This document shows, one piece after another, positions 2,590 through 46,029 of a stretch of DNA of 64,000 bases. This DNA is from Patescibacteria group bacterium UBA5147 (GTDB lineage: Bacteria; Patescibacteriota; Saccharimonadia; UBA4664): contig DHXV01000001.1 in assembly GCA_002415345.1 (NCBI GenBank), forward strand, positions 484,111-548,110. Reading direction: 5' to 3'. The notes under the pieces were generated by a model. The model did not search any database, was not told the origin of the DNA, and was given only the letters and a program-made list of their open reading frames with translations. The position numbers were made by a program, and so were the translations under genes. Position 1 is the first letter of the stretch, and every line of letters starts with the position of its first letter.

Positions 2590-2697
2590 GGTGTTGCGTC
2601 CAGTTATGTAACTGTCCGATAATATCAGATATGAGCCCCAGGGTCAATGTTCGCTCGCGTCGGCGACCAAATAGCCAAAATGGGCTACAATATGCTT

Positions 2698-3336: not shown

Positions 3337-3604
3337 TAAAGGCAGCTCTGCGGTACTGGAATCTGGCTAATCATTTTTCTCTGTACGATTACCAACGGGA
3401 GTCCAAGATTGTTCTGGCCCGTGGGCTTAGTAACTGAGGACACCCACCTGCTTATAGCAGGGAAAAGTTGGACTGTCGGGACCGTATTGCGGAGTGTCAC
3501 TTATCTAAGATATGAAAAGTCCCGGAATCTCCATTTGGAGGTTCCGGGACTTTGATTTCGGGTTATAATGGTTCTCTAACTTGGATGAAGCCGAGTGGCC
3601 ATAG

Positions 3605-4489: not shown

Positions 4490-4565
4490 CGGGGTGTGGC
4501 GCAGTTGGTAGCGCGTACGGCTGGGGGCCGTGAGGTCGCAGGTTCAAGTCCTGTCACCCCGACCA
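4490..4565 (+). tRNA. tRNA-Pro (anticodon GGG)
   Basis: Cloverleaf built by hand. The 7-bp acceptor CGGGGTG/CACCCCG, D-arm GCGC-AGTTGGTA-GCGC, anticodon loop CTGGGGG, T-arm GCAGG-TTCAAGT-CCTGT and 3' CCA are encoded. Confidence 0.88.
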
Positions 4566-6044: not shown

Positions 6045-6413
6045 AGTCAGACCAGAAGATGATCGCGCTTGCCGCAAGGCAAGTGAGGAAAGTCCGGACA
6101 GCATAGAGCAGGACGATTGCTAACGGCAACCGGGGGCGACCCTAGGGAAAGTGCCACAGAAACGAGACCGCCTTCAGCAATGGAGGTAAGGGTGAAACGA
6201 GTGCGGTAAGAGCGCACAGCCAAGCCGGGTGACCGGTGAGGGAGGTAAACCCCGTTCGCTGCAAGGCTGCTCCATCACGCCGCAAGGTGGGCTGCTCGCC
6301 CGATGAAGCGTATACGCCGCTTGAGGTCGCTGGCAACAGCGACCCTAGACAGATGATCATCCCGTGCCGGCCTTGCGCCGGCCCGACAGAATCCGGCTTA
6401 CTCCTGGTCTGAC
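6045..6413 (+). ncRNA. rnpB: RNase P RNA (bacterial type A)
   Basis: P1 stem GTCAGACCAG...CTGGTCTGAC, the universally conserved P4 strands GAGGAAAGTCCGGAC and ACAGAATCCGGCTTA, and a CATAAT -10 box about 7 nt upstream. The antisense ORF 6142..6471 is spurious. Confidence 0.8.
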
Positions 6414-6463
6414 ACGTTTTTATTTCGCTTATCATGTTAGAATGAGAGCAATTATCAAAGCTT

Positions 6464-10842: not shown

Positions 10843-11715
10843 TTATCCGCGCAGCGCCGTTGAGGCTTTTTCGGTGATGAAGCGGACGCGACGATTGGTC
10901 AAGCGGATGGCGATCGGCGTGCGCCCAGTGACCTTACCGTCCACCATGATACCCGTGGGAGGCGTCGTTTCAATGACGATGTGCTTCGCCAGGAAGCGGC
11001 TGGTGGCGGTTTCTTCGAGCGGGGAGGTGCCGTAACGCAGTAGTTGCCAGAGGTAACTGCCGAGCTGGCGGGTACCAGGTCGGTCGCTAAGGCTGATTAC
11101 GAGCCGGTCATCAGCCAACGGGTTAAGGAACTTCTGGTTGGCGATGGAAAGGGAAAACAGGTCGCAGTCAACCTTCATCGTGCCGTCGATGATCAGCTTG
11201 GCGCGCAGGGTAGTAAAGCCGCGGGCATAGCCCAGACTTTGCCGCAGCTGAATCAGGCGCGCCCTGATCCCTGGCTTACTGGTATCGACGGTCTTATCCA
11301 GGTCGGTTTCAAAGCCCATGGTGAGTGTGGACAGGAAAAACTTTTGGCCGGCGGCAATCAGACCGTATGAAGTCAAACGTCGGGCCGCCAGTACCTCGCA
11401 GCCCTGTTGCCAGCTGGTAATACCCAGTTGTCCGGCCAGACGGTTAACATCGCCGGTCGGGATGATCCCGACGGCCACGGCGCTGTTACCGAGCCCGTTG
11501 ATAACCTCATTAACCGTGTCATCGCCGCCGACCGCCACGATGGTGGTGTGGCCGCTGGCCACGGCGGCGGCAGTCATGTTGGTGGCTTCGCCCGGACCGG
11601 TTGTCTTGGCCCATTCGCCGCGAATGCCCAGCTCATCGAGCTTCAGGCGGATCTTGTCCTGCAGGGCCTTGTTATAACCGCGCCCGGCCGCTGGATTTAC
11701 GATGTAATAATACAT
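10843..11715 (-). CDS. Diacylglycerol kinase-family lipid kinase (DAGK_cat, YegS/BmrU-like)
   Basis: MYYYIVNPAAGRG...TIVAVGGDDTVNEV...GIIPTGDVN. Confidence 0.8.
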   Translation of the reverse strand: MYYYIVNPAAGRGYNKALQDKIRLKLDELGIRGEWAKTTGPGEATNMTAAAVASGHTTIVAVGGDDTVNEVINGLGNSAVAVGIIPTGDVNRLAGQLGITSWQQGCEVLAARRLTSYGLIAAGQKFFLSTLTMGFETDLDKTVDTSKPGIRARLIQLRQSLGYARGFTTLRAKLIIDGTMKVDCDLFSLSIANQKFLNPLADDRLVISLSDRPGTRQLGSYLWQLLRYGTSPLEETATSRFLAKHIVIETTPPTGIMVDGKVTGRTPIAIRLTNRRVRFITEKASTALRG

Positions 11716-11736
11716 GCTGCTATGCCTTTGCTGACG

Positions 11737-12126
11737 CTATTTGGCGTCGGTTTCCTCAATTGGCGGGCCGAGCTTGGGCGGTACCTCCATGCGGCTGCGG
11801 CCTAAAAAGATTCCCCCGGAGGTAATCGCCAAACTGAAGGCCGAAATGTCGCCGACGACCCGTCCGGTTTCGCGGATTACGGCCTCGCCGATGGCGGTGA
11901 TATTGCCCTCGAGAACTCCGGCCACCGTCACGTTATGACCGCCGATCTTACCTTTGACGACCGCGTTGGCACCCAACGTAACGTCGCCGGCCGCTTTGAC
12001 GTCGCCGGTAAGCGTGCCGTCGATGATGACGTCACCTTCGCTTGAGAGGTTGCCTTCGGCCACTACCCCGGATCCGATGATGGTATCGGCTCCCATAACC
12101 CCCAGAACATCATCGCGTCGTGCCAT
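11737..12126 (-). CDS. Bactofilin (DUF583) cytoskeletal protein
   Basis: Repetitive beta-helix pattern GDV.IDGTLTGDVKAAGDVTLGANAVVKGKI. Confidence 0.75.
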   Translation of the reverse strand: MARRDDVLGVMGADTIIGSGVVAEGNLSSEGDVIIDGTLTGDVKAAGDVTLGANAVVKGKIGGHNVTVAGVLEGNITAIGEAVIRETGRVVGDISAFSLAITSGGIFLGRSRMEVPPKLGPPIEETDAK

Positions 12127-12127
12127 C

Positions 12128-12625
12128 TTATGCCTCCTCGGTTAATTGCGGAACGCGCTTTTCGGCCAAGCCTAAGGCCTGCTTCTCTTCAACTGACAGG
12201 GTGTGCTTGCTCTTGCCGAAGTCGATTGGCTTTACATACACCCGCGTGCCTTCGCGGCCGTGGATGCTGGTCAGAACGTAGCCGGAGTTGTGGGCGTCCA
12301 ACACGGCCAGCACAAAGCTTTGGTCGCCGCCGGTGTCGCCGAACGGGTTGAATCGCACGATGGCGATTTTTTGTGAGGCCAGGCTGTTTGAAACGGCCAG
12401 CCGCTCGTAGTCGGCATCGAGCTCCCCAAGCCGCTTGTCGACCGTCTCGACCCGCGCCAGGTGTTTAACCAACGTCATTTCGAGCGAATCGGCACTGGTT
12501 CCTCCTAAAGCTGCTTCAAACCTTTGGCTTAAGCGTCGGAATAATATCAGGGCGATGGTGGCCGTAGCGACGGCCAAGACTGCAATAACAAGCGAAATTA
12601 TTTCCACGTCACATCCTTTAAACAA
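12128..12625 (-). CDS. DUF4446-like membrane-anchored protein
   Basis: N-terminal TM followed by RFNPFGDTGGDQSFVLAVLD. Stop/start adjacent to the bactofilin gene. Confidence 0.55.
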   Translation of the reverse strand: MFKGCDVEIISLVIAVLAVATATIALILFRRLSQRFEAALGGTSADSLEMTLVKHLARVETVDKRLGELDADYERLAVSNSLASQKIAIVRFNPFGDTGGDQSFVLAVLDAHNSGYVLTSIHGREGTRVYVKPIDFGKSKHTLSVEEKQALGLAEKRVPQLTEEA

Positions 12626-12717
12626 TTGAGTTCAAGTATAGGGTGGATAGGCGCTTTGAGGCAAACGCCCGAGGTCGGTGAGGCTGAACGCTGGTGCCTT
12701 ATGCTACAATATCGGCA

Positions 12718-12999
12718 ATGACAAAGAAGAAGCATCAACCAAAGAAGCATACGTTCAAACACGCTGCACCAGCGGCCGCTCCGGTGACGGGCAGCGCGAC
12801 AGCGGCTCCCCAGACCTCGGCAACAGCAACGAGCCGTTCTGCGGCGGTCATCGATACGCGTGATTTCAGTTATGTGAACCATGATTTGAGACGCGTCATG
12901 ATCTTCGCCGCCAGCCTGATTATTCTTGAGCTCGCGTTGTGGCTTGCTATGGACTACACCGTTCTCGGCAGCATCGTTTACGGTCTCATCAAACTGTAA
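12718..12999 (+). CDS. Small membrane protein (93 aa)
   Basis: TGCTACAAT extended -10 box lies 7 nt before the ATG (leaderless). C-terminal hydrophobic helix. Confidence 0.4.
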   Translation: MTKKKHQPKKHTFKHAAPAAAPVTGSATAAPQTSATATSRSAAVIDTRDFSYVNHDLRRVMIFAASLIILELALWLAMDYTVLGSIVYGLIKL

Positions 13000-14511
13000 T
13001 CAGCCCCTGGCCCGATATTGGAGCGCCTCGGTGAAGTGTTGCCGGCTTATCTTTTGTACGCCCGCCAAATCGGCGATGGTGCGGGCTACCTTCAGGGTCC
13101 GACTATATCCTCGCGCCGACAGCCCCAAATTATTCATCGCCGTCCTGGCCAAAATCTTGGTTGCCGGGTCGAGTTGGCAATATTGATCGATATGGTGCGG
13201 CGTGAGCTGGCAATTGAGTTGGATATCAGGCTCCGAGCTGTAGCGACGGCGTTGCACGTCACGGGCGCGCCCGACCCGCTCCGCCACGAGGACAGTCGGT
13301 TCAGCGGCCGGCTTATCTATTAGCAAGTCGGTTCGAACGCGGGCAACCTCGACCACTAGGTCGATCCGGTCTAAAAACGGCCCTGATAAGCGGTGCTGGT
13401 AACGCGAGATTTCTCCGGAGGTGCAGCTGCATTTCTTGTGCGAATCGCCGGCATAGCCGCAGGGGCAGGGGTTTCTGGTTCCCACCAGCATGAACTGCGC
13501 CGGGAAGGTGGAGGCATGACTGGCGCGGGACACCGTCACGCTGCCGTCTTCCAGCGGCTGCCGCAGCACCTCGAGTACCGCCCGGGGAAACTCGGGCAGC
13601 TCATCAAGAAACAGGATGCCGCGGTGGCTCAAGCTGATTTCGCCGGGTTTTGGATGGGTACCCCCGCCGATCAGGGCGACACTCGAGGCAGTGTGGTGCG
13701 GGGAGCGAAAGGGGCGTCTGGATATGATTCCATCAAAATTGAGGCCAGCCAAGCTATAGATACGTGTGACTTCAACCATCTCGTCGAACTCCAAGGGCGG
13801 CAATAACCCGACCATGGCCTTGGCCAGCAAAGATTTACCCGCTCCGGGTGGGCCTGACAATATCAGGTTATGACCCCCGGCAGCAGCTATCTCCGCGGCC
13901 CGCTTAGGCATGTCCTGGCCGGAAATACTGCTCATATCAACCATAGCTTCAGGGGCGATAAGTGGCACTATTGTAGTTTTACTTACAACGGTTATGCTTA
14001 ACCCTCCGCTCAAATGCCGGTAAAGTTCGGCCAGGCTTGCTACCGGATACACCAGGGTATCCCCGACCAAGGCGGCCTCCATAGAATTTTCAGCGGGTAC
14101 GAAGATACGCTTGAACGCGGAGGATTGGGCCAGCTGGGCGGCCAGCAGGGCGCCCCGCACCGGCCTGACCGTGCCATCCAGCGCCAGTTCGCCCAGAAAC
14201 AGGCAGCTGCGGATTGACTCCGCGCTCAGCTGGCCGCTGGCCACCAGCACCGCCACGGCCAGCCCTAAGTCGTAGCCAGTGCCGTCTTTGGGGAGATCGG
14301 CCGGGGCGAGGTTGAGCGTCAGTCGTTTTTGGGGCAGGATGAGACCGCTGTTACGAATGGCGCTGCGCACGCGTTCCCGGGCTTCCTCGACCGCTTTGTC
14401 GGCTAGCCCCACTACGACGAAGCCGGGGAGACCGTTGGCCATATCGCACTCAATCTCAATCAGCCGGCCGTCCAGGCTGAAGAGGGCAGGGGCATAAACT
14501 TTCGAAAGCAT
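13000..14511 (-). CDS. comM: YifB/ComM-family Mg-chelatase-like AAA+ ATPase
   Basis: MLSKVYAPALFSLDG start with AGGA RBS. Lon-like N-domain, Walker A ILSGPPGAGKS, and a C-terminal ChlI-like domain. Confidence 0.85.
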   Translation of the reverse strand: MLSKVYAPALFSLDGRLIEIECDMANGLPGFVVVGLADKAVEEARERVRSAIRNSGLILPQKRLTLNLAPADLPKDGTGYDLGLAVAVLVASGQLSAESIRSCLFLGELALDGTVRPVRGALLAAQLAQSSAFKRIFVPAENSMEAALVGDTLVYPVASLAELYRHLSGGLSITVVSKTTIVPLIAPEAMVDMSSISGQDMPKRAAEIAAAGGHNLILSGPPGAGKSLLAKAMVGLLPPLEFDEMVEVTRIYSLAGLNFDGIISRRPFRSPHHTASSVALIGGGTHPKPGEISLSHRGILFLDELPEFPRAVLEVLRQPLEDGSVTVSRASHASTFPAQFMLVGTRNPCPCGYAGDSHKKCSCTSGEISRYQHRLSGPFLDRIDLVVEVARVRTDLLIDKPAAEPTVLVAERVGRARDVQRRRYSSEPDIQLNCQLTPHHIDQYCQLDPATKILARTAMNNLGLSARGYSRTLKVARTIADLAGVQKISRQHFTEALQYRARG

Positions 14512-14609
14512 GACAACGCATCCTGTTAGGTACCTAGTGATAATACCGAACATAGACCGAATGTCAAAGTTCCGCCATATTTTTTGCACTTTTTTGTTGT
14601 CAATGGTTA

Positions 14610-14647
14610 TTGACTTACTTACCTAACTAATCTATACTGCCCCCATG
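14610..14647 (+). promoter_or_regulatory. Sigma70-type promoter of the trmB-like gene, leaderless
   Basis: TTGACT, a 17-nt spacer, TATACT, then 6 nt to ATG 14645. Confidence 0.6.
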
Positions 14648-15433
14648 AACGAACAAGAACTTATCTCCCATATCGAAGAAATCGGCCTCAGCAACAAAGA
14701 GGCCAAGGTTTACGTTGCCTGCCTCAAGACCGGTCCATCACCCGTCCAGCGTATTGCCGACCAGTCTGGAATTAAGCGCGTAACCACCTATGTGATTTTA
14801 GAGTCACTAGTTGGGTTGGGCCTGGTATCCCAAAGCGTAAAAGGCAAGAAGACCTACTTCATCGCCGAAGAGCCTTCTAACTTAAGCCGTCTGCTGGAAA
14901 AGCGTGAGCTGGAACTTAACGATCAAAAAGCTAACTTCGAGCAGGTCTTGCCTGAGCTTTTGAGCTTGAAAACTCTGCCAAAAGAGAGTCCTAACGTTAA
15001 GTATTATGATGGTGCCGATGGTATCAAATCGGTTATGAGTACGTTTTTAGCTGCGCATAAAAATGAAGTCGCCGACGGTATTTACGGAATCAGCAATTTA
15101 GATCAGCTGTATGCATTCTTCCCCGAGTTTCGTACAAGCTCATCTAACCCGACGCGCGTGCGTCAAGGCGTGAAGAGCAAGATTATATACAACTTCAAAG
15201 ATGGTCCGGTGTTTCGAGACTCGGATGCCGAAAAGAATCGTGAATCTCGATGGGTCCCCGATGATCTCTTTCCCTTGAACGGTGATATTAACATAGTAGG
15301 GGATCACATTATCCTACTCTCCTTGACCGGCTCGAGCCCGATCGCTGTAACAATCGACAGTCATGAGCTAGCAACTGGACTGATCGGGTTCTTTAAGTTA
15401 GCTTGGGTAGCTGCCCAGCCCTATAATAAGTAG
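14645..15433 (+). CDS. TrmB-family transcriptional regulator
   Basis: N-terminal HTH (LSNKEAKVYVACLKTGPSPVQRIADQSGIKRVTTYVILESL) plus a C-terminal sugar-binding-like domain. Confidence 0.7.
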   Translation: MNEQELISHIEEIGLSNKEAKVYVACLKTGPSPVQRIADQSGIKRVTTYVILESLVGLGLVSQSVKGKKTYFIAEEPSNLSRLLEKRELELNDQKANFEQVLPELLSLKTLPKESPNVKYYDGADGIKSVMSTFLAAHKNEVADGIYGISNLDQLYAFFPEFRTSSSNPTRVRQGVKSKIIYNFKDGPVFRDSDAEKNRESRWVPDDLFPLNGDINIVGDHIILLSLTGSSPIAVTIDSHELATGLIGFFKLAWVAAQPYNK

Positions 15434-16006
15434 CCATTAGTGGTCATTTGGCAATTATAGTGTTGACTTAGAGTGTATAAGGTGTTAAGTTTGTTAGGCT
15501 TTGGTACCCGATGTGCCTTAGCCTGGCCTCGACTACTTCAGACGAGGGTTCAGTTCCAGCTAGGCAGTGCGTTAGGAGAAGGCGATGTCCACATGACTTC
15601 CATGCAGACACCAACTTCCGGATCCCTGCCAGAGAAGGTGTAGCTGATAGGCTCACCTCTGGTACAGGGACCCGGTCAATCAGTCTCCGTCGCCTCTGAC
15701 CGGGTCGCTCGGAGATAACCGGGGCAATGGTTTAGCGACCATAGTCCCAGCGGCGGCGTCGGCTCAGCTTGGCCTCGGTCGGTTGAGCCGGCACCGTTTG
15801 CATCCCACCTACAACATATTTATTTCATCGCAATCGCGGGAATAAATCGCACCTTGTACAACCGTTCATAACCATCCCACGGGATTCCATATCCCGAACC
15901 ATTCCCCAGTATCACCCTCAGTCTACGGACCAAGATGTGAACTGGGGTTTTCGCTTGTTCATTACCAAGCTCAGCTCTGATTAATGGTGTAGCAATTATC
16001 CGACAT

Positions 16007-16033
16007 CCCCTAAGTATGCTAGAAGGGGTTTTT
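16007..16033 (+). terminator. Intrinsic terminator (plus-strand oriented) overlapping the stop codon of the convergent GT4 gene
   Basis: CCCC-taagtatgctagaa-GGGG followed by TTTTT. Confidence 0.55.
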
Positions 16034-17317
16034 GATTCCAAGTAGCGGCAAACGCTGACGCGGACGTGGCTTGTGGTGTTTAACTGTGTCCTCGTAGAGG
16101 GCGATTAGCTGCTCAGCCTGGTTCTTTACGCCGTAGCCGTCGGCCAGCTTGATGCTCTGCTGACCCATGCGCTGGCGGCGGGCCGGGTCTCCCAGGACTT
16201 CCAGAATCTGATTAGCCAAACCGCGGGCGCTGTTGCGGGCGAAGATGCCGTTTTTTCCATTACGGACCACTTCTGTGACATCGCGGTCAATCATGACGAT
16301 TGGCAGGCCGGCTCTGGCCGCTTCATTTAAGACCAGGCCTTGAGTCTCACTGAGAGAAGGGAAGGCAAAGACCGTCGCGAGGGCGTAGATTGCGCCAAGA
16401 GCCAGATGGTCGATAAATCCGGTGAAAATAATACGATCTGCGTAAGGACTGGCAGCACCTTGCCGCACAAAATCATCGATGTCTTCGCCGATACCTACAA
16501 GTATTAGCTTGGCGTGCTCGTCGCGCTGGGCGATGATATCGAACGAGCTGATTAAGAGGCCGACGTTCTTTTCGGTGCCCATACGACCCACGAACAACAC
16601 CACGTGGTCATCTATTGTAATGCCATATTGCTGGCGCCGCTTGGTGATATTCTCCTCAGTTGTAGTAATCTTGTCTACACCTGTAGGCAAAACGACAATC
16701 TTCGTCTTTGTTTTCCAGCCTGTCAGTTGTTGTTTGATTTTTTTAGACGGTGATATGACGACGTCGCAGTGGTTATGGATCATCGTTACGCTGCGGGCGA
16801 CGATCTTCTGGTTCCATTTGTCGATGCTGCTCTCAGGCTTGATTGAGCTCAGACCCGTGCGGAATTCGTCCATGCCGCCGCCGGTTATGGCCGGAACCAG
16901 CATCGACAGCGCGATGGTGCCCGGCAAGACGGCCGGGTAGTGTTTAACGTATTCAAATAAGTCGGTGTGGTAGGTTGTGACTAGTGGAATATCGTGACGT
17001 AGGGCAAAAAACGCCCCCAGCAAGCCTAATTGGCCCGGGGTGTGGTAATGAATGATGTCCAGTTTAAGCTTTTCGAGCTTTCGTTCTGCTTGAGGCGGAA
17101 AAAAGATGCTTGTCAGGTAGTCGTCAAAGAAGAGGCCCTTAACCGCCGGGAACCGGATGATTCGCTTAGATGGCTCTTTGAACCTAAGATTCGGCCGCGC
17201 CGTAATCACGTACACTTCATGACCCATTGCTTCAAGTTCGGTGCGGAAACTCTCAATGGAAAAAGCGATGCCGTCCGCCCGGGGTAAGTAGTTGTCGCTG
17301 AAAAATCCTATTCTCAT
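16019..17317 (-). CDS. Glycosyltransferase family 4
   Basis: GT-B fold with the MRIGFFSDNYLPRADG N-terminus and an EG..VLEA.A.G.P motif. ATGA overlap with the upstream GT4. Confidence 0.8.
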   Translation of the reverse strand: MRIGFFSDNYLPRADGIAFSIESFRTELEAMGHEVYVITARPNLRFKEPSKRIIRFPAVKGLFFDDYLTSIFFPPQAERKLEKLKLDIIHYHTPGQLGLLGAFFALRHDIPLVTTYHTDLFEYVKHYPAVLPGTIALSMLVPAITGGGMDEFRTGLSSIKPESSIDKWNQKIVARSVTMIHNHCDVVISPSKKIKQQLTGWKTKTKIVVLPTGVDKITTTEENITKRRQQYGITIDDHVVLFVGRMGTEKNVGLLISSFDIIAQRDEHAKLILVGIGEDIDDFVRQGAASPYADRIIFTGFIDHLALGAIYALATVFAFPSLSETQGLVLNEAARAGLPIVMIDRDVTEVVRNGKNGIFARNSARGLANQILEVLGDPARRQRMGQQSIKLADGYGVKNQAEQLIALYEDTVKHHKPRPRQRLPLLGIKNPF

Positions 17318-18498
17318 GCTGTCTTTCCGGCTTCGAGAATGGTGCGTTTGTAGGCGGTTTCGTAAGCCTCAAACATGTGATTAGTGCTGTGAGACGACTG
17401 AACAATAGAAATACTCTTGGCACCAAAACGTTTCTGCAAAGCCTTATCCTCCAAAATAATCATTAATTTCTGAGCCATAACCTTAAAATCGTCCTTCGGG
17501 AACAAGTAACCGTTCCTGCCGTCATGACAGAGCTCCGCCAGGGCGGCCACATCAACTGCCACCACCGGCAGGCCGCTCGCCATGGCTTCCAATGTCACGA
17601 TGCTCTGTAACTCGGCCGGTGACGAGATGGCAAAAACCGTGGCGGTGTTGTAAATAAGTGGTTTGTCGGCCTCGTCGATGAAGCCGGTAAAGACAACGTC
17701 TCCGGCTATGCCCAAACGTTTGGCCTGGGCCTTGAGCGCGCCGGTCGCTTTGCCATACCCAACCAGTACGAGCTGCGCCGACACGCCGGCTTGCTTAATC
17801 TGACCCATGGCCGCAACCAGCAGATCTAAGCGCTTTTCACCGTCAAGACGACCGACATACAACACCACGGGGCGGTCGGTGGCTACGCCATATTTGGCAG
17901 CCACGGCGTCAGCATCCTGGCCGGGTATGAACACCGCGGTATCAATGCCGTTGGTAATCGCTTCCGACGGTACCTTGAGGCCGTGATCCAATAGCAGTTT
18001 CACCGCCGTGGGCGTCGGCGAAGTCACATAGTCGGCGCGGTTATGGAACCATACCAAAAAGCTCCAGGTCAACCGTTCCAGCGGGGTGTTGATTATTTCC
18101 GGCAGTTTGAGGTTGAGCGTGAGGTTCTCGGGCATGAAATGATTAGTGGCGATTACCGGTATCTGCATGCGATGCGCCCAGAACATTGTTGCAAGCCCCA
18201 TCCAGTAGCAGTTATGGATATGTATGACCTCCGGCCGGTCGCGCAAAATTACCTGCCTGGCCTTCAGGAAAGGGAACAGGCTCACTTTGTACTTGGTATT
18301 CGCCCATAGGGTCACGCCGCGCTCCCGGTGGATGAGGCTGCCTGCGTCCTGCTCGTCGTAGCTGGCAAAGCGGGGAGCTGGCGCCCACACCGTCACCTTA
18401 TGGCCACGACCGATGAGGCCATGAACCAGGCGCCGTTCAAACAGGGCGCCGCCGTCGGCATTGGGCCAATAACTCTCGGTCACAAGAAGCACGTTCAT
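17314..18498 (-). CDS. Glycosyltransferase family 4
   Basis: MNVLLVTESYWPNADGGA start with a TATAAT -10 box 7 nt upstream (leaderless). GT4 C-terminal motifs. Confidence 0.8.
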   Translation of the reverse strand: MNVLLVTESYWPNADGGALFERRLVHGLIGRGHKVTVWAPAPRFASYDEQDAGSLIHRERGVTLWANTKYKVSLFPFLKARQVILRDRPEVIHIHNCYWMGLATMFWAHRMQIPVIATNHFMPENLTLNLKLPEIINTPLERLTWSFLVWFHNRADYVTSPTPTAVKLLLDHGLKVPSEAITNGIDTAVFIPGQDADAVAAKYGVATDRPVVLYVGRLDGEKRLDLLVAAMGQIKQAGVSAQLVLVGYGKATGALKAQAKRLGIAGDVVFTGFIDEADKPLIYNTATVFAISSPAELQSIVTLEAMASGLPVVAVDVAALAELCHDGRNGYLFPKDDFKVMAQKLMIILEDKALQKRFGAKSISIVQSSHSTNHMFEAYETAYKRTILEAGKTA

Positions 18499-18584: not shown

Positions 18585-18950
18585 TTACTGTTCGGGCGCT
18601 TCATCCTCGTTGAGGTTGTTGTATTTCTCTCTGATTTTCTCACCCGTGGTCATATCTTCTCCCGAGGCTGACTTGTCTTCAAAGTCGCTGCCGGGATCGT
18701 CCATGCCGGCCGGTTCAGTCATGGGATCAGCCTCATCCAGGGTCTCTCGGAAGTCTTCGTCGGGGGCGGCCTCGACAACTGGCTCCAAATCATCTTCATC
18801 CTCATCGGCTTCGTCTGAGACCACATCGGCGTCCGTATCCGCCATCACCGGTTCGTCCTCATCATCACGCGATATCTTCTCTCCGAATGAATCGCGGTAG
18901 AATGACTGGTCATCATCACGGTCTAATTTATTGTCTAGTTCTTCATCCAT
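18585..18950 (-). CDS. Small, extremely acidic (D/E-rich) protein, predicted disordered
   Basis: AAGGAGG RBS 6 nt before ATG (MDEELDNK...). More than 40% Asp+Glu residues. Confidence 0.5.
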   Translation of the reverse strand: MDEELDNKLDRDDDQSFYRDSFGEKISRDDEDEPVMADTDADVVSDEADEDEDDLEPVVEAAPDEDFRETLDEADPMTEPAGMDDPGSDFEDKSASGEDMTTGEKIREKYNNLNEDEAPEQ

Positions 18951-19109
18951 GATATCCTCCTTGGCTACATTATCGATGCTACGCCCCACTCCAGGTGGCT
19001 GATACCGCCAACATTACAATTACGCCCCATGGCATTTATCCAATTTTGGGTAAATCGTCGTGTTTATTACAACAATTCTTATGCTTATGGCCTTAAAAGA
19101 CCCCTCCAA

Positions 19110-19138
19110 TTGATGCCCCAGGCGACAAATGATATAAT
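19110..19138 (+). promoter_or_regulatory. ssrA promoter
   Basis: TTGATG, a 17-nt spacer, TATAAT. The predicted TSS is about 10 nt before the mature tmRNA 5' end, implying a processed leader. Confidence 0.55.
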
Positions 19139-19154
19139 GCGGAGGTACGTATAT

Positions 19155-19532
19155 GGGGCTGATCAGCTTCGACGTTGGGAACTTTACAAGTCATGTGCGC
19201 AGGTCGCAGGTACGCGTTACCATCCAAAAGTTACCTTAACTGGCAACATTTTAAGTCGGGTGAAGGCTGCTTTTGCAGTACCTTCATTCGCTCCCGTTTA
19301 CGCTTAATCACGTAAACTATCGGCACCAGACACCTCATATGGGTTCGCCGGTATCAAATTATGAGGTTGCTCTTTGCAGCGTGTCTCCGCTGCTTAGCTA
19401 AGATCAGAGGCCGCTCCCGCCGTCAGTTTGTCTGAGAAGATGACTTCGGGCTAAGATTGAAATCAGACTAAACCTGTAGTGCACTGGCGAGTAACTCGAC
19501 GGACTGGGGTGCAATTCCCCACAGCTCCACCA
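19155..19532 (+). ncRNA. ssrA: tmRNA (SsrA); tag ORF about 19266..19307 encoding AAFAVPSFAPVYA*
   Basis: 5' GGGGCTGATCAGCTTCGACG matches the tmRNA 5' consensus. 3' end TGGGG-TGCAATT-CCCCA-CAGCTCCACCA is a T-arm plus acceptor plus CCA. The G3:U acceptor pair is the Ala identity element. Confidence 0.85.
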
Positions 19533-19587
19533 AAAACGCCTCAGTTGTTCTGGGGCTTTTTTGTATAGGTAGGAGTAAAATGAGGCC

Positions 19588-19899
19588 ATGAATAAACAAT
19601 TACTCACTACGACTTTCAGAAACACTGCCCTCGCTGCGGTGTACATATTTCTTGTTTCGCAAATCATGCAGCACGGCAGCCAATGGTTTGGCCAGAAAGA
19701 TAACTTCGTAACACCGTTCGTTGTACTCATGCTATTTTCGTTGTCAGCGGCTATGGTCGGTGGGTTGGTGCTGGGTCAAGCAGTTATCCTGGTTCTGGAG
19801 AAGAAGACTGCCGAGGGTGTGAAGTCGGCGATTTACAGCATAGGATGGCTGGCCGTGTATACGCTACTTGGGATCGTGGCGTTGGCTGCCCTGAGGTGA
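19588..19899 (+). CDS. Small membrane protein (103 aa, about 3 TM)
   Basis: Hydrophobic helices. Lies between ssrA and its partial 3' duplicate. Confidence 0.4.
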   Translation: MNKQLLTTTFRNTALAAVYIFLVSQIMQHGSQWFGQKDNFVTPFVVLMLFSLSAAMVGGLVLGQAVILVLEKKTAEGVKSAIYSIGWLAVYTLLGIVALAALR

Positions 19900-19928
19900 A
19901 CTTTTTATACTAGTGATAGATTGAAAAC

Positions 19929-20321
19929 ATGAAAGACTTGAAGAAAATTCAGAATCTGGCGGGGGATGAGTTCTGGCCAACGATGCCGGTAGTGACGGTT
20001 TCCGGTGATGATTCAGCGCCAGCTATACCGATGGACGCGACTCAGCCGGAAGGTGAGGAAGTTGTCCAGGCTTGGCAGCGTGTGGCTGTACTTGAAGTTG
20101 TGCCTGTTTCTGAGGCTTACTGGGGTTTCATGGCCGGTGACCATGTTCAGTTTATGAATGTGCCGGTCCAGCTTCTAGAGGGCAAATTTGGGGTGCGAGT
20201 AGGAGATGGGGAAGTAAAGTTCTTCGTAATTCCCGTGGATATGAAATCGCGGTTGGAATTAAAGTTAGTCGAGGTGACTGACATGAATGACGCTAAATAT
20301 TCAGATTTGCCCTTGTATTAG
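19929..20321 (+). CDS. Hypothetical protein (130 aa)
   Basis: ORF with no recognisable domain. Lies between ssrA and the duplicated ssrA 3' fragment. Confidence 0.4.
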   Translation: MKDLKKIQNLAGDEFWPTMPVVTVSGDDSAPAIPMDATQPEGEEVVQAWQRVAVLEVVPVSEAYWGFMAGDHVQFMNVPVQLLEGKFGVRVGDGEVKFFVIPVDMKSRLELKLVEVTDMNDAKYSDLPLY

Positions 20322-20359
20322 CAGCCGGTAAGCGGCTATGTCCTGCGCCACTGAGTGCA

Positions 20360-20405
20360 AAGAATCACCCCGCAGCTCCACCAAAAACGCCTCAGTTTTC
20401 TGGGT
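20360..20405 (+). repeat. Partial direct repeat of the ssrA 3' end plus about 25 nt of downstream sequence (attR-like)
   Basis: CAGCTCCACCAAAAACGCCTCAGTT(-)TTCTGGG matches 19522-19554 with one indel. Flanks are also loosely similar. Confidence 0.7.
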
Positions 20406-20707
20406 GTGATTGATAATTGGTAGGGTCGGCATTACCCCCAATGTATATAGCCGATTAATAGCTTTTATTTTCGTGATAGTCTCATCGCATGTGCGGAAGA
20501 TTCACCCCAGTCGGAGACGGCCAAGTGATCACTGAGTATTACAGTGAGCAGGGAATCGGTTGTTATCGTGGTTACAGTTACAACGATGTGCCCACATATG
20601 TTGAGACACAGTGGGGAAACATGTTTATGATTCTCCGGTACGGACTACCATCCAGATTCAACCTCTAAGTGGAGTTTTTATTGGTACTAAAGTTTTAGAA
20701 ATACTAA

Positions 20708-21520
20708 TTACAAACAAGAAACGTCGTAGTCGAGCGTGCCGGAGACGTATTGCGTAATGGTGACTTTGCCGCCAGATGTAAGAGGGGTTAGGGAGCAGTT
20801 TGATTGGGCCCCCGAGTGATTGCGGGCGCCGGGACGCCAATTGTTCAGGCCATTCAGGTTGCTGGTCGGGCTGACTGTTCCGACAATGGACTGCCACTGT
20901 GCGGTTGTCGAGTAGATGCCAGCGGTGGTTCCGATGGCTTCAAATTCGGCAATCATGCCCTCGAGGTCAGCTACGTTGCGTGCCTGTCCCCCTGTCGTAG
21001 TATCCCAGCTGTTGCCGGTCTCGACATCTAGCCACCAAGCGTAGGTGCTAGGGTCGGTAACTCCACGGTTGGTTGCGTCCTCGACGGCACGGTTCCAGCC
21101 ATACTGCCAAGCGCATGCCAAACTATTGCTGTGGTCGCAATCGCCATAAGGGTTTGCGGCCAAGTTACCTGAAGGGTCAACATTACTGGACGGCCAGGAG
21201 AGAGTGTTGAGCCCGCCAGGATTTGCAGTATTGACGTAGAGCTGAGCTTTTGGCTGAGCAGTTGCGCCAGTTGAACCCTGAGCCCAGGCTAGTTCAGCGC
21301 TGAGACAAGGATTGGTTGTGTTAGCGAGGCCATCATTGACGCCCACGATCCCAAACGCCTGGCCGGAGGGTAGGGTCTTGTTGCATTGCGGATAGGAGAC
21401 GTCATTACCAAGCAGGTAAGCTGTACCGCCGCCAGTAGGCCTAGCAGCTAGCGCTGGGCTGCCGACGATAGTGGCGGCTAGGGCGCCAATTAGTAGGGTT
21501 TGAGATAATCGCAATAACAT
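20708..21520 (-). CDS. Secreted protein with signal peptide; possible glycoside-hydrolase-like (GH25/Rv2525c-like) domain
   Basis: N-terminal signal peptide. The domain call is a weak recollection-based match on the DVSYPQC...GIVGVNDG segment. Cys-containing. Confidence 0.4.
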   Translation of the reverse strand: MLLRLSQTLLIGALAATIVGSPALAARPTGGGTAYLLGNDVSYPQCNKTLPSGQAFGIVGVNDGLANTTNPCLSAELAWAQGSTGATAQPKAQLYVNTANPGGLNTLSWPSSNVDPSGNLAANPYGDCDHSNSLACAWQYGWNRAVEDATNRGVTDPSTYAWWLDVETGNSWDTTTGGQARNVADLEGMIAEFEAIGTTAGIYSTTAQWQSIVGTVSPTSNLNGLNNWRPGARNHSGAQSNCSLTPLTSGGKVTITQYVSGTLDYDVSCL

Positions 21521-22026
21521 GGGTAAATTGTATCATGAAGCATGAATGTTACGTATGTATTTATGCCGTACGATTGAGGCTGTTTTTGTGTCGAGCGTCC
21601 TTTGTGCCTAGATAGCACCTTCAGTCTTGCACCTCGGCTATGATGGGGTGTGATGATTCAGGAGAGCATGCGGACTCCTGTGTTTTGATTGCTGATGATT
21701 TAGCGACAGTGTTTTTGTGCCATGGTGACGAGCCTCTGGATTATTCGGTTGCTTTTGAGGCGGCTAGTTTAAGAGCAAGGCTGACCGGGGAGAGGTAGGT
21801 TGCTGACTTTTCTACTCAGTTTTCTTACAGGCTAGATTATCAAACGGCATTATTTAACAGTTAGACAGGGGTTATCTATTTTGCCAATTACTCCACCCAA
21901 AATATAATGATGCATCGATGATTCAGCCTCAATTCTGAACTTGGGAACGTGGACATTGCCTTGACGAAGTGCCCATAAAATGGTATATTTCAGACTATCG
22001 TCATCCCATCTACGGAAGAAGCTAGC

Positions 22027-22263
22027 ATGTCTTCGACGCGTACATTACCGTCAGACCTTTTCCGCTGGTGGCTAAAGCCACTTCGCGCAGGAACGGCCCA
22101 ATACCAGACCTACCTCAGGCTACTCCGCAAGAAACTAGAGCAGGAGGGCTTCACACTGGAAGACATTGGCACGAGCGAGGAGGAGCTCTCCATGCTCCGC
22201 TCCAGAGGCGCTGCCAAGGCCGCCAGCCTCATGCTCGCGGATCAAGTACGCAGCCAGAATTAA
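22027..22263 (+). CDS. Hypothetical small protein (78 aa)
   Basis: TTGACG-17-TATATT promoter and GGAAGAAG RBS lie upstream. Confidence 0.35.
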   Translation: MSSTRTLPSDLFRWWLKPLRAGTAQYQTYLRLLRKKLEQEGFTLEDIGTSEEELSMLRSRGAAKAASLMLADQVRSQN

Positions 22264-22292
22264 CCCACAGCCCCGACGACCTGAGGAGACAA

Positions 22293-22607
22293 ATGGCTCG
22301 CAAACCCAGGGAGAATAAGCTGAGAGTCAACTTCAATGACCTCATTAACGTTGAGGCCGGTGCCGTTCTCCGAATCCATTTCAAAGGCTCCTCAACCGAT
22401 GGAGCTCTCAGCCTGATCGGCATGATCAGGTCCGGAATGCTAACCTCGGACAACGAAGCGCGGCTCTCCATTATTGCCGTGCTTCGGAACTGGGGAGACC
22501 GATCTAACCAGATTGTCGAAGCCGTCACGACCGAGACTTTTGACCGGACCTGGTTTGAGAGCCAGCTGGCAGACGAGATTACCCGGCTTGATGTCAAACC
22601 GCGCTAG
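22293..22607 (+). CDS. Hypothetical protein (104 aa)
   Basis: GAGGAG RBS before ATG 22293. The listed ORF 22068..22607 has a non-protein-like Arg-rich N-terminus that overlaps the previous gene, so it was trimmed. Confidence 0.4.
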   Translation: MARKPRENKLRVNFNDLINVEAGAVLRIHFKGSSTDGALSLIGMIRSGMLTSDNEARLSIIAVLRNWGDRSNQIVEAVTTETFDRTWFESQLADEITRLDVKPR

Positions 22608-22711
22608 CGGCCACACGGCTCCGTTCTTAACTGAACACCCGCCCCTACGAAACGGCAATTGCCCTCCTCGTGGGGGCATTTGCTTTGGATGGGTTGTGAA
22701 AGCTAACGCGG

Positions 22712-23518
22712 CTACTTGAGCTCGAATTCAACCGTGAACGAGTAAGTGACATCGTTGGTGCCGGGTTGGATGGTGGGGCCGCCGCTGGACTTGGTAGATT
22801 GGGGCATCGTGACGCCGCCGGATGAATCGGTAGCGTAGATCCAAGGCGAGGTGATGTCGCTGATTTTGACGACCCTGCCGACGCGGGCATCGAGCTGTTT
22901 GGCGGTGGCGGTGGCCTTGGCTTTGGCATCGTCGCTAGCTTTTGAGCGTGCAGATAGGTCTAATTTGGTCTGAGTATCTTTTGTGAACACGGCATTGGGA
23001 GTGACTTGGCCCGTAGCTTTTGTGGTGGCGAGGTAGTCGCTAACCCCTTGGGCAAGGGCTTTGTCGGTAACGGTGGCCGTGATGGTGTAGGTGGAGTCGT
23101 TCGGAATTGGGTAGGGCATGCCGTTAGGCTCACTGACGGCAATCTGCGGACTAGTCGCGCCCAGAGGTATAGGTTTGGGGTCGGAGGAAGCGAATATCGT
23201 TGTTTTTATATCAACGTCTTTGACGCCGAGCTTCTTTAATTGGGCGACAGCTTCATTACCAACAGCGGTTACCGCTTTGATATCCGTGCCAGAAAATATC
23301 GGCTGGAACTGGTACTTATCGGGGACGGCGCTCACCGTAGCTTGGCCTTGAACGGAGATGGTTCGGACGGTGCCGGACTGTTCCCATGGTTTCCAGAAGT
23401 ATGTCATGGCAGCGATAACGACTAGCAGCAGGAGCGCCAGCGTACGCCAACTGAGGCTTATACGGATTGCTGGTTTTTCCTTTGGGACAGGCGGTTGAGT
23501 GGGTGAGGTGTCATTCAT
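22712..23518 (-). CDS. SIMPL-domain (DUF541) secreted/periplasmic protein
   Basis: TATAAT -10 box 6 nt before ATG (MNDTSP...). N-terminal TM, and a C-terminal TYSFTVEFEL typical of SIMPL. Confidence 0.7.
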   Translation of the reverse strand: MNDTSPTQPPVPKEKPAIRISLSWRTLALLLLVVIAAMTYFWKPWEQSGTVRTISVQGQATVSAVPDKYQFQPIFSGTDIKAVTAVGNEAVAQLKKLGVKDVDIKTTIFASSDPKPIPLGATSPQIAVSEPNGMPYPIPNDSTYTITATVTDKALAQGVSDYLATTKATGQVTPNAVFTKDTQTKLDLSARSKASDDAKAKATATAKQLDARVGRVVKISDITSPWIYATDSSGGVTMPQSTKSSGGPTIQPGTNDVTYSFTVEFELK

Positions 23519-23597
23519 AGGCAAATTATACCAATATTGCATGAGCGTACTCAAATCAATCTGCTAAGATAACGGTAATGTTTGAAGGGAGCGGATA

Positions 23598-23759
23598 ATG
23601 GTTGGTTTAGCTGCAATTAATAATTCAGGACTAGCTCAGGCAAATTCAACAGCCTCGCCGGTGTTGTCGCCAGCGTCGGTGGGGGCATTGGGCATAGTAT
23701 TTTTGGTGATATTCGGAGGGTTCATGGTCTGGTATATGATTATGCGCCGCCGACCTTGA
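23598..23759 (+). CDS. Possible small protein (53 aa) with a hydrophobic C-terminal helix and RRRP tail (not in ORF track)
   Basis: GAAGGGAG RBS 6 nt before ATG. Ends 18 nt before the FKBP gene start. Confidence 0.25.
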   Translation: MVGLAAINNSGLAQANSTASPVLSPASVGALGIVFLVIFGGFMVWYMIMRRRP

Positions 23760-23776
23760 AGGTCAAGGTGATCAAA

Positions 23777-24403
23777 ATGGGGTCAGTGGCGGTAGGGACC
23801 GGCATCGTGGTCGGGCTGGGCGTGGTCGGCTGGATGTATCTGCACCGGCCTGAGGCGCCTTCGGCCCGTTATTCGGGAGGTCCGATGGTTCTGGATACCA
23901 GCACCACCCCAGCGCCGGCGCCGGAGGGAGCGCTGCAGGTAGCGGGGCCCGCTTCGGTAGCGGCTAATGGCGGAAACCCTGGAACGCTGCTTGGCGGGAC
24001 CACAGGCAAGGCACAGGACTCGGCGTCAAACTCGCTGCCCGGACCGAACGACTTCCGGCAGTATGAGGAACACCGTGATAAACCGACGGCGCTGTTCATC
24101 GACGTCGTCGTGGGTCAGGGTAAAGACGTTGGTGTCGGGAACCAGGTGAGCGTTATGTACCGCGGCTGGCTCACGGATGGAACGTTGTTCGATGAAAACT
24201 ACTCACGCAATCAGGTGTTTACCTTCAAAGAAGGGGATCATCGGGTGATTCCGGGCTGGGAACAAGGCTTGTTCGGCATGAAAGAAGGGGGTAAGCGCCG
24301 GCTAATTATTCCCGCATCGCAGGCTTACGGATCCGAGGTCCACGGTCCGCTTCCTGCCAACTCGATGCTCATATTCGATATCGAACTGAACAAGGTAGAG
24401 TGA
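23777..24403 (+). CDS. FKBP-type peptidyl-prolyl cis-trans isomerase, membrane-anchored
   Basis: AGGTGA RBS. N-terminal TM, and a C-terminal FKBP domain (VSVMYRGWLTDGTLFD...LIFDIELNKV). Confidence 0.8.
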   Translation: MGSVAVGTGIVVGLGVVGWMYLHRPEAPSARYSGGPMVLDTSTTPAPAPEGALQVAGPASVAANGGNPGTLLGGTTGKAQDSASNSLPGPNDFRQYEEHRDKPTALFIDVVVGQGKDVGVGNQVSVMYRGWLTDGTLFDENYSRNQVFTFKEGDHRVIPGWEQGLFGMKEGGKRRLIIPASQAYGSEVHGPLPANSMLIFDIELNKVE

Positions 24404-33047: not shown

Positions 33048-34625
33048 TTATTCGCCGACGGCCGTGTAGACCTCTTCGAGAGTGGTCTTGCCGGCCAGAA
33101 CCTTCCCAATGCCGTCTTGGAGCAGGGTTTCCATCCCGTCCTTGATGGCGGCCTGTTCGATAGCCTGGGTTGTGGTGGCGGCGCTGCTGCGGCTGATAAG
33201 CGCTTCCATGGCGGGGGTAACTACGAGTTGTTCCAGAATGCTGATGCGGCCCCGGAATCCGAACCGATGGCACTTGTCGCAGCCGACGGCTTTGTAGAGC
33301 TTGAGCGAATCATAGTTGGGCTGCGATACTTCCGGCAGGCCGCTCAGGGCCGTCTTAATTTCCAACAGCTCGTGTTTGTCGGGCTTATATGGTTTTTTGC
33401 AATCGTCGCAGAGCTGTCTGACCAGGCGCTGAGCCATGATCAGCCGGATGGAAGAGGCGAGCAGCGGGTTCTCCCCGATCATATCCATCAGCCTCGTTAC
33501 GGCGGCCGAGCTGGAAGAGGCGTGGAAGGTCGACAGGACCAGGTGCCCGGTCAGGGAGGCCTGTAAAGCGGTCTTGGCCGTATCGGCATCACGGATCTCG
33601 CCGATCATGATGATGTTGGGATCTTCCCGCAGCACGGCGCGGAGCTTCTCCATGAACATCTGTTGGTCCTCCGAGTGGACGGGAATCTGGGAAACGTCGT
33701 CCAGCTCGTATTCCACCGGGTCTTCCAGGGTGACGATTTTGACCTGATCGTTGTTGAGGTGGTTCAGGAGGGAATACAAGGTTGATGTTTTACCGGACCC
33801 GGTCGGGCCGACGGTTAGAACCATGCCGCGCGGGTGCGCGACGGCGCGGGATAGAGCTTCGGCTTGCTTGGGTGAAAGGTGCAAGTTATCCAGGTTCAAA
33901 TACTGCATACTCAGGTTGAATATCCGGATCACCACGTCCTGGCCATGGAGCGAAGGTATGGTCTCAAGGCGCATGTTGACGTCGATTTCGTCGCCCTCGG
34001 CGTTAATGGCGTGGATATTGATGCGCCCGCCCTGGGGGGTATCAGAGCCCCATTTGACCCCGGCCCGCATCTGCAGGTCGCTGGTGAACAAGTCGTAGCG
34101 GTCCTTGGGAATGGTGATGATGGGGTGCAGGGTGCCGTCCAGCCGGAACCGGATGCGCGCGTCATCCGCCGAGGGTTCGATATGGATGTCCGACGCCCCA
34201 AGCTGATAGGCGAGTTGGGCGACCGGTTCGAACATATATTTGGGCTCCAGGGTAGCAACCTGTTCGGCAAAGGCCTCAAAATCGCCCGATTCCAGTATGT
34301 CCTGGTTGGCCGCGATCGTGAATCGGTTAAAGATCCGCTGCCAGCCGATATCAGAGGTCAGGACGAAGGTCACCTCATATCCGCTGAGCCGCTGGCGCAG
34401 CGGCTCCAACAGGCTGCGGTTGGATTGGGAGTTGATGCCGATGAGCAGTTTGTTGTCCTCTATGGACACTGGCACGATGCCGTACGCCCGCATACCTTCG
34501 ACGGTGAGCTTGCCGATCAGCGGGGTGATATCGATTTTGGGCCGGGTATCAAAATAGCCTACGCTGAGCTGCTGGGCGAATTCCTGTGAGGCTGTTTCGA
34601 TTTGGTCGCGTTCTTGTGTTGTCAT
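33048..34625 (-). CDS. pilB: Type II/IV secretion ATPase GspE/PilB family (type IV pilus assembly ATPase)
   Basis: N-terminal GSPII-like domain. Walker A VGPTGSGKTST, Asp/His boxes and a tetra-Cys motif (CDDCKK...CDKC). Confidence 0.85.
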   Translation of the reverse strand: MTTQERDQIETASQEFAQQLSVGYFDTRPKIDITPLIGKLTVEGMRAYGIVPVSIEDNKLLIGINSQSNRSLLEPLRQRLSGYEVTFVLTSDIGWQRIFNRFTIAANQDILESGDFEAFAEQVATLEPKYMFEPVAQLAYQLGASDIHIEPSADDARIRFRLDGTLHPIITIPKDRYDLFTSDLQMRAGVKWGSDTPQGGRINIHAINAEGDEIDVNMRLETIPSLHGQDVVIRIFNLSMQYLNLDNLHLSPKQAEALSRAVAHPRGMVLTVGPTGSGKTSTLYSLLNHLNNDQVKIVTLEDPVEYELDDVSQIPVHSEDQQMFMEKLRAVLREDPNIIMIGEIRDADTAKTALQASLTGHLVLSTFHASSSSAAVTRLMDMIGENPLLASSIRLIMAQRLVRQLCDDCKKPYKPDKHELLEIKTALSGLPEVSQPNYDSLKLYKAVGCDKCHRFGFRGRISILEQLVVTPAMEALISRSSAATTTQAIEQAAIKDGMETLLQDGIGKVLAGKTTLEEVYTAVGE

Positions 34626-45953: not shown

Positions 45954-46029
45954 CGGGGTGTGGCGCAGTTGGTAGCGTGCTGTGTTCGGAACGCAGAGGT
46001 CGCAGGTTCAAGTCCTGTCACCCCGACCA
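45954..46029 (+). tRNA. tRNA-Pro (anticodon CGG)
   Basis: Same acceptor and T-arms as the GGG isoacceptor. Anticodon loop TTCGGAA. CCA encoded. Confidence 0.88.

Follow-up and report, generated by a model that had tools for sequence, protein, structure and literature searches.

The DNA examined here is a 64-kb window (the whole stretch of 64,000 nucleotides (nt) from contig DHXV01000001.1, to which all positions refer unless another locus is named). At its centre of interest is ssrA, the gene for transfer-messenger RNA (tmRNA), the 3' end of which recurs as a second, partial copy 851 bp downstream, so that a direct repeat brackets two small open reading frames (ORFs), called ORF1 and ORF2. 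The source names of ORF1 homologs include Candidatus Saccharimonadales and Saccharimonadaceae bacterium, and the contigs that carry the region come from permafrost and soil metagenomes; the host is thereby identified, indirectly, as an uncultured soil/permafrost member of the Saccharimonadales (Saccharibacteria/TM7, in the candidate phyla radiation, CPR). For comparison we used 54 related metagenome loci (L013–L066) found by a scan with the tmRNA 3' end, together with further loci obtained through protein look-ups. The features of the locus, with protein lengths in amino acids (aa), are as follows.

19110–19138, + strand: promoter-like site of ssrA, TTGATG-17-TATAAT with an extended −10 TG (consensus match)
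19155–19532, + strand: tmRNA gene ssrA, one-piece (Rfam RF00023)
19242–19307, + strand: tag reading frame, GNILSRVKAAFAVPSFAPVYA followed by a stop codon (RF00023 alignment and relatives)
19517–19554, + strand: repeat copy 1, attL-like, last 16 nt of ssrA plus 22 nt of terminator (exact core 19522–19546)
19538–19562, + strand: intrinsic terminator of ssrA, GCCTCAG-TTGTT-CTGGGGC then TTTTTT (hairpin 19538–19556 plus T-run)
19588–19899, + strand: ORF1, 103 aa, membrane protein with three hydrophobic segments, conserved in Saccharimonadales
19929–20321, + strand: ORF2, 130 aa, soluble and beta-rich, of narrow distribution and in shifting contexts
20368–20404, + strand: repeat copy 2, attR-like, CCCCGCAGCTCCACCAAAAACGCCTCAGTT-TTCTGGG (exact core 20373–20397)

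The covariance model RF00023 gives ssrA exactly the limits proposed in the initial annotation, a first description of the window made from its letters, scoring 89.7 bits (gathering score 47, E 1.6e-33, model positions 1–374 of 374), and the gene can be aligned over its entire length with the tmRNAs of relatives. ARAGORN called no tmRNA at 19155–19532. The acceptor stem pairs 5' GGGGCUG with 3' CAGCUCC-ACCA, with the G3-U wobble present and the CCA encoded. The T stem is UGGGG/CCCCA and the T-loop, UGCAAUU, is non-canonical (T arm GGGG-UGCAAUU-CCCC, with G in the usual T54 place); it is likely because this loop stands in place of the usual UUCRANU that ARAGORN missed the gene. The same T arm and T-loop are kept in the 54 related loci, and ARAGORN-based annotation may overlook ssrA across the whole clade, together with any islands anchored on it. 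The closing pair of the T stem is U-A in the window (CTGGGG/CCCCA, 19505–19521) and C-G in every relative (CCGGGG/CCCCG; L020–L071), which reads as a compensatory double change. Upstream, the putative ssrA promoter, recognized by consensus match only, is sigma-70-like with 10/12 consensus matches and ends 17 nt 5' of the tmRNA; downstream, a GC-rich 7-bp hairpin with T-run lies 3' of the CCA, and comparable terminators directly follow the CCA in relatives (L055, L038, L032). No smpB gene was found among the window ORFs scanned. To judge from these features of the sequence, the tmRNA gene of this Saccharimonadales genome is functional.

The same alignment places the consensus resume codon on GGC at 19242, which we take to be the exact resume codon, and from there the tag reads GGC AAC ATT TTA AGT CGG GTG AAG GCT GCT TTT GCA GTA CCT TCA TTC GCT CCC GTT TAC GCT TAA. 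When the tmRNA was aligned with those of the metagenome relatives, the corresponding tags were SNFLARVKAAFTLPTFAPVYA (L021 and L056), ANFISRVKAAFTVPSFAPAYA (L071) and GNLLSRVKAAFQVSSFVPVYA (L038). One frame is kept as peptide in L021, L056, L038, L071 and L061, with many synonymous third-position changes. The frame and the -VYA end predicted initially are therefore borne out, both by RF00023 and by the relatives' peptides; the predicted length of 13 codons is not, since 21 codons are conserved and the tag probably has this length. On these alignments an ending P-[V/A]-Y-A is a trait of the lineage, and the tag sequence …PSFAPVYA now has comparative support for it.

The 25-mer CAGCTCCACCAAAAACGCCTCAGTT that forms the core of the repeat is present exactly twice in the 64 kb (19522–19546 and 20373–20397, hence the spacing of 851 bp). 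A third copy is absent even at 3 mismatches, and 0 of 100 shuffles gave a match. That the ssrA 3' end and its flank recur, with one indel, was thus correctly recognized at the outset, and the complete repeat can now be set at 38/37 nt, with 36 matches, one A/G mismatch and one indel, and with 16 nt belonging to ssrA and 21–22 nt to the terminator. Its limits were examined with shuffles anchored on the edges of the core. The rightward extension through TTCTGGG, past the 1-nt indel, is significant (17/5000), and beyond CTGGG similarity is at chance level (578/5000). The leftward CCCC[A/G] alone is not significant within the window (658/5000) and was counted into the repeat (19517–19554 versus 20368–20404) because copy 2, over positions 20368–20395, agrees at 28/28 nt with the genuine end of the tmRNA gene and the adjoining flank in a sister species (L071); left of CCCC similarity is again at chance level (2861/5000). 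The looser similarity of about 15 nt on both sides that had been noted initially does not survive these controls, the flanks being no better than shuffles. An initial repeat search and MAFFT had also hinted at similarity over about 57–80 nt, and in an unconstrained local alignment of the repeat flanks 1000/5000 and 1213/5000 shuffles reached the observed score. We accordingly rejected an 850-bp tandem duplication, parallel to the pair of ORF1 genes in L071, in which the left flank of copy 2 would be the decayed remains of a T arm and its right flank the start (GGTAGG) of the ORF1 leader, as this flank similarity is at chance in the shuffles. Because the edges of the repeat are sharp and its core is exact over 25 nt, it resembles an att identity block rather than the residue of a decayed long duplication.

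That all the sequences come from metagenome assemblies is the sole point in favour of a chance match or an assembly artefact. Positions 19000–20800 are 100% identical in six independent assemblies (ENA, JGI, Logan), four of the six spanning both copies, so that the repeat arrangement is not an assembly artefact; together with the absence of any match to the 25-mer at ≤3 mismatches in the 100 shuffles, this effectively refutes such an explanation. Nor does the locus resemble a transposable element with target duplication, for which a duplication of 2–14 bp, terminal inverted repeats and a transposase are characteristic: the repeat here is 37–38 nt long, no inverted repeats were found at the ends of the bracket, and no transposase is encoded in it.

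Both bracketed ORFs have the coordinates first given for them, and domain scans revealed no integrase between the repeat copies. ORF1 has 73 homologs (54–100% identity, nearly all of 102–105 aa) with 16 invariant alignment columns, and ORF2 has 19 (52–100% identity) with 9. Neither has a significant Pfam, PHROG or PADLOC family. By the conservation of their homologs the two are real genes to which no function is assigned. The AlphaFold2 model of ORF2 has a mean predicted local distance difference test score (pLDDT) of 95.2 and a predicted template modelling score (pTM) of 0.86, with seven strands and one longer helix; Foldseek gave no significant match to it in PDB or BFVD, and the model may represent a small, undescribed fold.

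Comparison of the same locus in relatives separates what is old in this arrangement from what is new. In a related genus (L059 and L061) synteny upstream of ssrA extends over window positions 11504–17321 at 50–70% amino acid identity, including TrmB and a GT4 gene, and the ortholog of the FKBP gene at 23756–24403 begins 138 nt after ssrA; the window therefore holds about 4.2 kb without counterpart in these two loci. The islet of 0.8 kb proposed at first is accordingly only part of a variable stretch that runs over 19533–23755. The sister species L071 has a tmRNA 76% identical to that of the window and ORF1 sequences 87–95% identical at the DNA level. There, ssrA and its terminator are followed by a 448-aa gene and a PIN toxin gene, then by ORF1 copy A, an 89-aa gene and ORF1 copy B, and after three other genes by SIMPL; the two ORF1 copies (2556–3757) lie 868 bp apart and share 97% and 93% amino acid identity with ORF1 of the window. 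In a second sister species (L073, NCBI GCA_038245115.1) the order is RHH-PIN, a 364-aa gene, Phd-ParE, ORF1, two other genes and SIMPL. Both sister species share ORF1 and SIMPL with the window but have other genes between them, and at this place ORF2 and repeat copy 2 are absent from both. Conserved core synteny of the two ORFs and the repeat, which would have spoken against an insertion, is thus not what the relatives show, and on this comparison ORF2 and copy 2 are peculiar to the species of the window.

ORF1 behaves differently. In all three species (window, L071 and L073) the ssrA terminator, by its descending arm and T-run, supplies the beginning of the ORF1 leader (CTGGGGCTTTTT..TAGGTAGGAGTAAAATGAGGCC-ATG), and DNA homology between species (window 19544–19899, L073 2849–3204) begins at window 19544–19550 and breaks off precisely with the stop codon of ORF1. 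Each of the four ORF1 instances is followed by a different gene. In L071 and L073 the insertions fall in the loop of the terminator hairpin, the L071 terminator diverging from that of the window directly after CCTCAG. The junction of ssrA, terminator and ORF1 looks ancestral for the genus, with ORF1 apparently an old neighbour of the terminator. The idea that the bracket contains two small hypothetical cargo proteins is therefore too simple: ORF2 is the variable part, and ORF1, with its 73 homologs and ancestral-looking junction, may have adjoined ssrA for long and not be recent cargo. The stretch downstream of ssrA as a whole is, to judge from these gene orders, a recombination hot spot in which gene content turns over between related genomes. 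Just 5' of the leader of ORF1 copy A, L071 also carries at 2495–2570 the succession CTACAGCTCC, 24 nt, TCCCAGG, 11 nt, CTGGGGCTTTT, possibly the decayed remains of another att copy at the end of the insertion of the 448-aa and PIN genes.

The contexts of ORF2 homologs shift from genome to genome, which also favours an insertion. In L007 and L067 the neighbourhood is NUDIX, Pterin-4a, EPSP-synthase and Mur-ligase, and the context of the homologs in L070 and P0011 has only a nearby NUDIX gene in common with it. A 101-aa ORF that precedes ORF2 in L067 was considered as an ORF1 homolog and found not to be homologous. In two further contexts (L010 1–530; L011 5690–6234 and L012 3589–4133) an ORF2 homolog with 52% identity lies directly 3' of a tRNA gene on the same strand, the gene being tRNA-Met in L011 and L012 and, in L010, a 5'-truncated tRNA gene with a GCA anticodon as read by eye; no flanking repeat was detectable at these tRNA-adjacent homologs.

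Copy 2 starts 46 nt 3' of the ORF2 stop codon and retains a 5-bp hairpin, and it has neither a following T-run nor a paired T-stem before it. At the mismatched position, at the left edge of the repeat, it carries the G of all relatives, where the resident tmRNA has A. These properties bear on an explanation without any insertion, in which ORF1 and ORF2 would be resident genes and copy 2 a short local duplication, produced by template switching or illegitimate recombination, that could have been retained as a terminator or processing signal after ORF2. The place of copy 2 46 nt after the ORF2 stop, with its hairpin, would suit such a role; ORF1 with its terminator-arm leader is kept beside the terminator in three species, and the composition of the bracket is unremarkable. 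Nevertheless copy 2 would be a poor terminator, having lost the T-run and part of the stem, and its 16 nt of tmRNA would be superfluous for one; it has the relatives' G instead of the resident A, and the sister species lack ORF2 at this position. We also know of no usual outcome of slippage that consists of dispersed 37-nt copies 851 bp apart. On balance we regard local duplication as unlikely.

A more satisfactory account is that the arrangement is the attL/attR-type scar of an integrase-type Campbell insertion at the 3' end of ssrA, now left as a remnant resembling a cis-mobilizable element (CIME), and to this we assign a probability of roughly 0.55. A circular DNA would have carried the ssrA 3' end and terminator of a related bacterium and would have recombined with the resident ssrA 3' end inside the 25-nt identical core. 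The left product would be an intact ssrA with the incoming terminator, the right product a displaced, non-functional copy, and the 0.85-kb unit between them (ORF1 and ORF2) would be mobile at best with an integrase supplied in trans. Since copy 2 has the relatives' G and matches L071 at 28/28 positions, its left arm would derive from a related but different donor; and the core would be perfect while the flanks are unrelated because conservation between donor and host is confined to the core, the flanks differing between species. The empty junction predicted from this scheme is tmRNA…CCTCAGTT joined to TTCTGGGTGTGATTGATAATTGG, that is, …CAGCTCCACCAAAAACGCCTCAGTT followed directly by TTCTGGGTGTGATTGATAATTGGTAGGG, and the predicted circular junction is …AAGAATCACCCCG-core-GTTCTGGGGCTTTTTTGTATAGG, that is, …GAGTGCAAAGAATCACCCCGCAGCTCCACCAAAAACGCCTCAGTTGTTCTGGGGCTTTTTTGTATAGG. 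The insertion event is one that we infer, as are the circular intermediate, the action of a site-specific recombinase rather than RecA, the timing and the arrival of ORF1 with the repeat. With two att-like copies and no recombinase or transfer gene between them the unit fits the definition of a CIME, and it would be at best a cis-mobilizable remnant. If excision does occur, it would be among the smallest att-bounded units described.

Several observations weigh against this reading. Neither the bracket nor the 20 kb annotated around it, nor any other window ORF scanned, yielded an integrase or recombinase. IMG/VR contigs contain neither ORF1 nor ORF2, and a viral contig scan gave no match to the att-like repeat core. 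The composition of the bracket is not distinct (GC 0.49–0.52, compared with 0.45–0.58 around it). The filled site is carried by all six assemblies of the window's species, and neither an empty-site variant nor a circular junction was observed among them. Of the 37–38 nt of the identity block 21–22 lie outside the gene, which is unusual for elements that target tRNA or tmRNA genes. Finally, ORF1 is a gene conserved in the Saccharimonadales, and in three species its leader starts in the terminator arm; from this it follows that the insertion is older than the genus, or else that ORF1 is resident and only ORF2 and copy 2 are new, an outcome that a single crossover at ssrA would not directly produce. 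The attL/attR interpretation put forward initially is thus sustained as far as the sharp repeat, the non-core synteny and published precedent are concerned, and not in its simple form of a 0.8-kb cargo of two genes.

In keeping with an insertion, repeats of the ssrA end are found elsewhere in the clade. At seven loci (L014, L019, L046, L052, L037, L058 and L038) ssrA and its terminator are followed by an insert of 125–170 nt, and towards the end of each insert the 3' end of ssrA is repeated (15–24 nt by BLAST), with a second terminator after it. L062 provides a matching empty site for the L014 type, the duplicated stretch there being about 33 nt. The seven inserts also gave sub-threshold matches to the permuted-tmRNA model RF04321. 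In a more distant member of the Saccharimonadales (L074 2218–4081, and also L075) the 3' end of ssrA is overlapped by about 50 nt by a convergent gene for a large serine recombinase of 507 aa, with Resolvase, Recombinase and zinc-ribbon domains, and HTH and DUF5659 genes lie beyond it; the L074 locus is probably an integrated element with ssrA as its attachment site. Against the insertion proposed for the window, it should be noted that a recombinase adjoins ssrA in only 1 of about 55 clade loci inspected. In about 20 further clade loci the ORFs just 3' of ssrA are mostly housekeeping genes, as judged by eye.

The same Campbell topology could have arisen by host homologous recombination over the 25–37 nt, for instance when DNA of a related Saccharimonadales had been taken up, with no integrase and without there ever having been a mobile element. 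This would agree with the lack of a recombinase among the scanned window ORFs and with the nature of the identity block, which is mostly conserved non-coding flank common to relatives (as in the 28/28 match with L071). The homology around ORF1 ends abruptly at gene boundaries, suggesting frequent patchwise replacement, and the type IV pilus/T2SSE-type ATPase encoded at 33048–34625, which we take to be linked to DNA uptake, is compatible with such exchange. A length of 25–37 nt is, however, near the minimum for RecA-mediated exchange, being at the lower limit of substrate length, and the recurrence of ssrA-end repeats around short inserts in distant clade members, with a serine recombinase at the ssrA gene of L074, points instead to site-specific activity there. 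We therefore consider homologous recombination improbable as the origin of the repeat.

A quite different possibility is that small promoterless genes are added and exchanged at a reusable docking site formed by the hairpin of the ssrA terminator rather than by the body of the tmRNA, and would be read through from the strong ssrA promoter, in effect an integron-like cassette platform without a linked integrase. The hints are weak: the ORF1 leader starts in the terminator arm in three species whatever gene lies upstream, the hairpin loop is where the L071 and L073 insertions fall, homology ends exactly with the stop codon of ORF1 and a different gene comes next in each of four cases, and the repeat comes after ORF2. 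Integron cassettes are likewise small, with apparently promoterless ORFs, and one may liken the hairpin-bearing repeat after ORF2, and the sister-species insertions at the terminator hairpin, to theirs. The resemblance is loose, as the locus has a single repeat and neither an integron integrase nor attI, nor an attC palindrome with R and L boxes; the scanned ORFs of the window include no integrase, and ORF1 has no hairpin repeat after it. Both the docking-site idea and its integron-like form are in our opinion very doubtful.

Returning to the proposed Campbell-type insertion, integration at tRNA and tmRNA genes that leaves a copy of the gene 3' end is textbook biology, and the locus is a further example, in a CPR bacterium, of a well-known feature; it changes no concept. 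Sublocation classes for the integration of tyrosine-integrase prophages and islands at tRNA and tmRNA genes have reportedly been defined by Williams. As in such integration, the window has the intact gene at one end and a 3' fragment at the other; in the classic case, however, the identity block runs from the crossover to the 3' end of the gene, whereas here it comprises 16 nt in the gene and 21–22 nt of terminator. ssrA is a favoured integration site, and tmRNA gene fragments made by islands are a recognized annotation problem (PMC4131195).

The closest published precedent is the set of genomic islands specific to ssrA (ssrA-GIs) of Dehalococcoides, in which 20 bp of the ssrA 3' end are repeated and tandem arrays occur, their integrase-less units being read as cis-mobilizable (PMC3146451). 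These islands measure 10–30 kb, and in half of them the large serine recombinase DsiB lies beside attL (PMC3146451). The window shares with them a single-copy tmRNA gene, a 3' end repeat bounding variable DNA and a unit without integration module, as well as the situation downstream of ssrA as the main site of plasticity in a small, streamlined genome. It differs from them in that the repeat is 37–38 nt and mostly terminator, as against 20 bp within ssrA, and in that the unit has 0.85 kb, two small genes, one repeat and no recombinase in the scanned ORFs. CIMEs are defined as elements that keep their att sites and have lost the genes for integration and transfer, being derived from decayed integrative and conjugative elements (ICEs) or integrative and mobilizable elements (IMEs) (PMC5704250). 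Here, too, the target gene's 3' end forms part of repeats resembling attL and attR, there are no integration or transfer genes, and the unit is proximal to variable DNA, as in accretion tandems. Unlike typical cargo, however, ORF1 is conserved in the lineage, and descent from an ICE or IME and mobilization are both hypothetical; moreover CIMEs are known mainly from Firmicutes and not from CPR bacteria. The signature, together with a small hot spot of gene turnover beside ssrA, is now documented in Saccharibacteria, organisms with tiny genomes, on whose mobile elements at ssrA the literature offers little; none of five papers returned by a full-text search for Saccharibacteria and tmRNA had either term in title or abstract.

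Beyond copy 2 the variable DNA continues up to the conserved FKBP gene and contains the following features.

20405–23755, no strand assigned: remaining lineage-variable DNA between copy 2 and the FKBP gene (comparison with relatives)
20708–21520, − strand: 270-aa protein with hydrophobic N-terminus
22027–22263, + strand: 78-aa ORF
22293–22607, + strand: 104-aa ORF
22712–23554, − strand: SIMPL/DUF541 gene
23756–24403: FKBP gene, ortholog in L059/L061

At the distal edge of this region neither a third att copy nor homology to the ssrA–FKBP spacer of L059 was found. A 59-aa ORF at 20489–20668 starts with MCGRF and was considered as SRAP/YedK; it has no Pfam match at E ≤ 1, and the likeness is probably coincidence. 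An isolated stretch of 45 nt with 85% identity is shared between window 20694–20738, at the 3' end of the 270-aa gene, and L071 3339–3386, in the gene-free spacer before ORF1 copy B, and is possibly the remnant of a deleted gene.

On the other side of ssrA, a 134-aa ORF rich in Asp and Glu (18585–18989, − strand) lies between a GT4 glycosyltransferase pair and the tmRNA gene and has no family match. Elsewhere the window contains a class A bacterial RNase P RNA (6047–6416, 264 bits) and two tRNA-Pro genes, with GGG and CGG anticodons (4490–4565 and 45954–46029). The other content is that of an ordinary chromosome, with genes for aminoacyl-tRNA synthetases, a class A penicillin-binding protein, the T2SSE-type ATPase, a PMT-type mannosyltransferase and RmuC.

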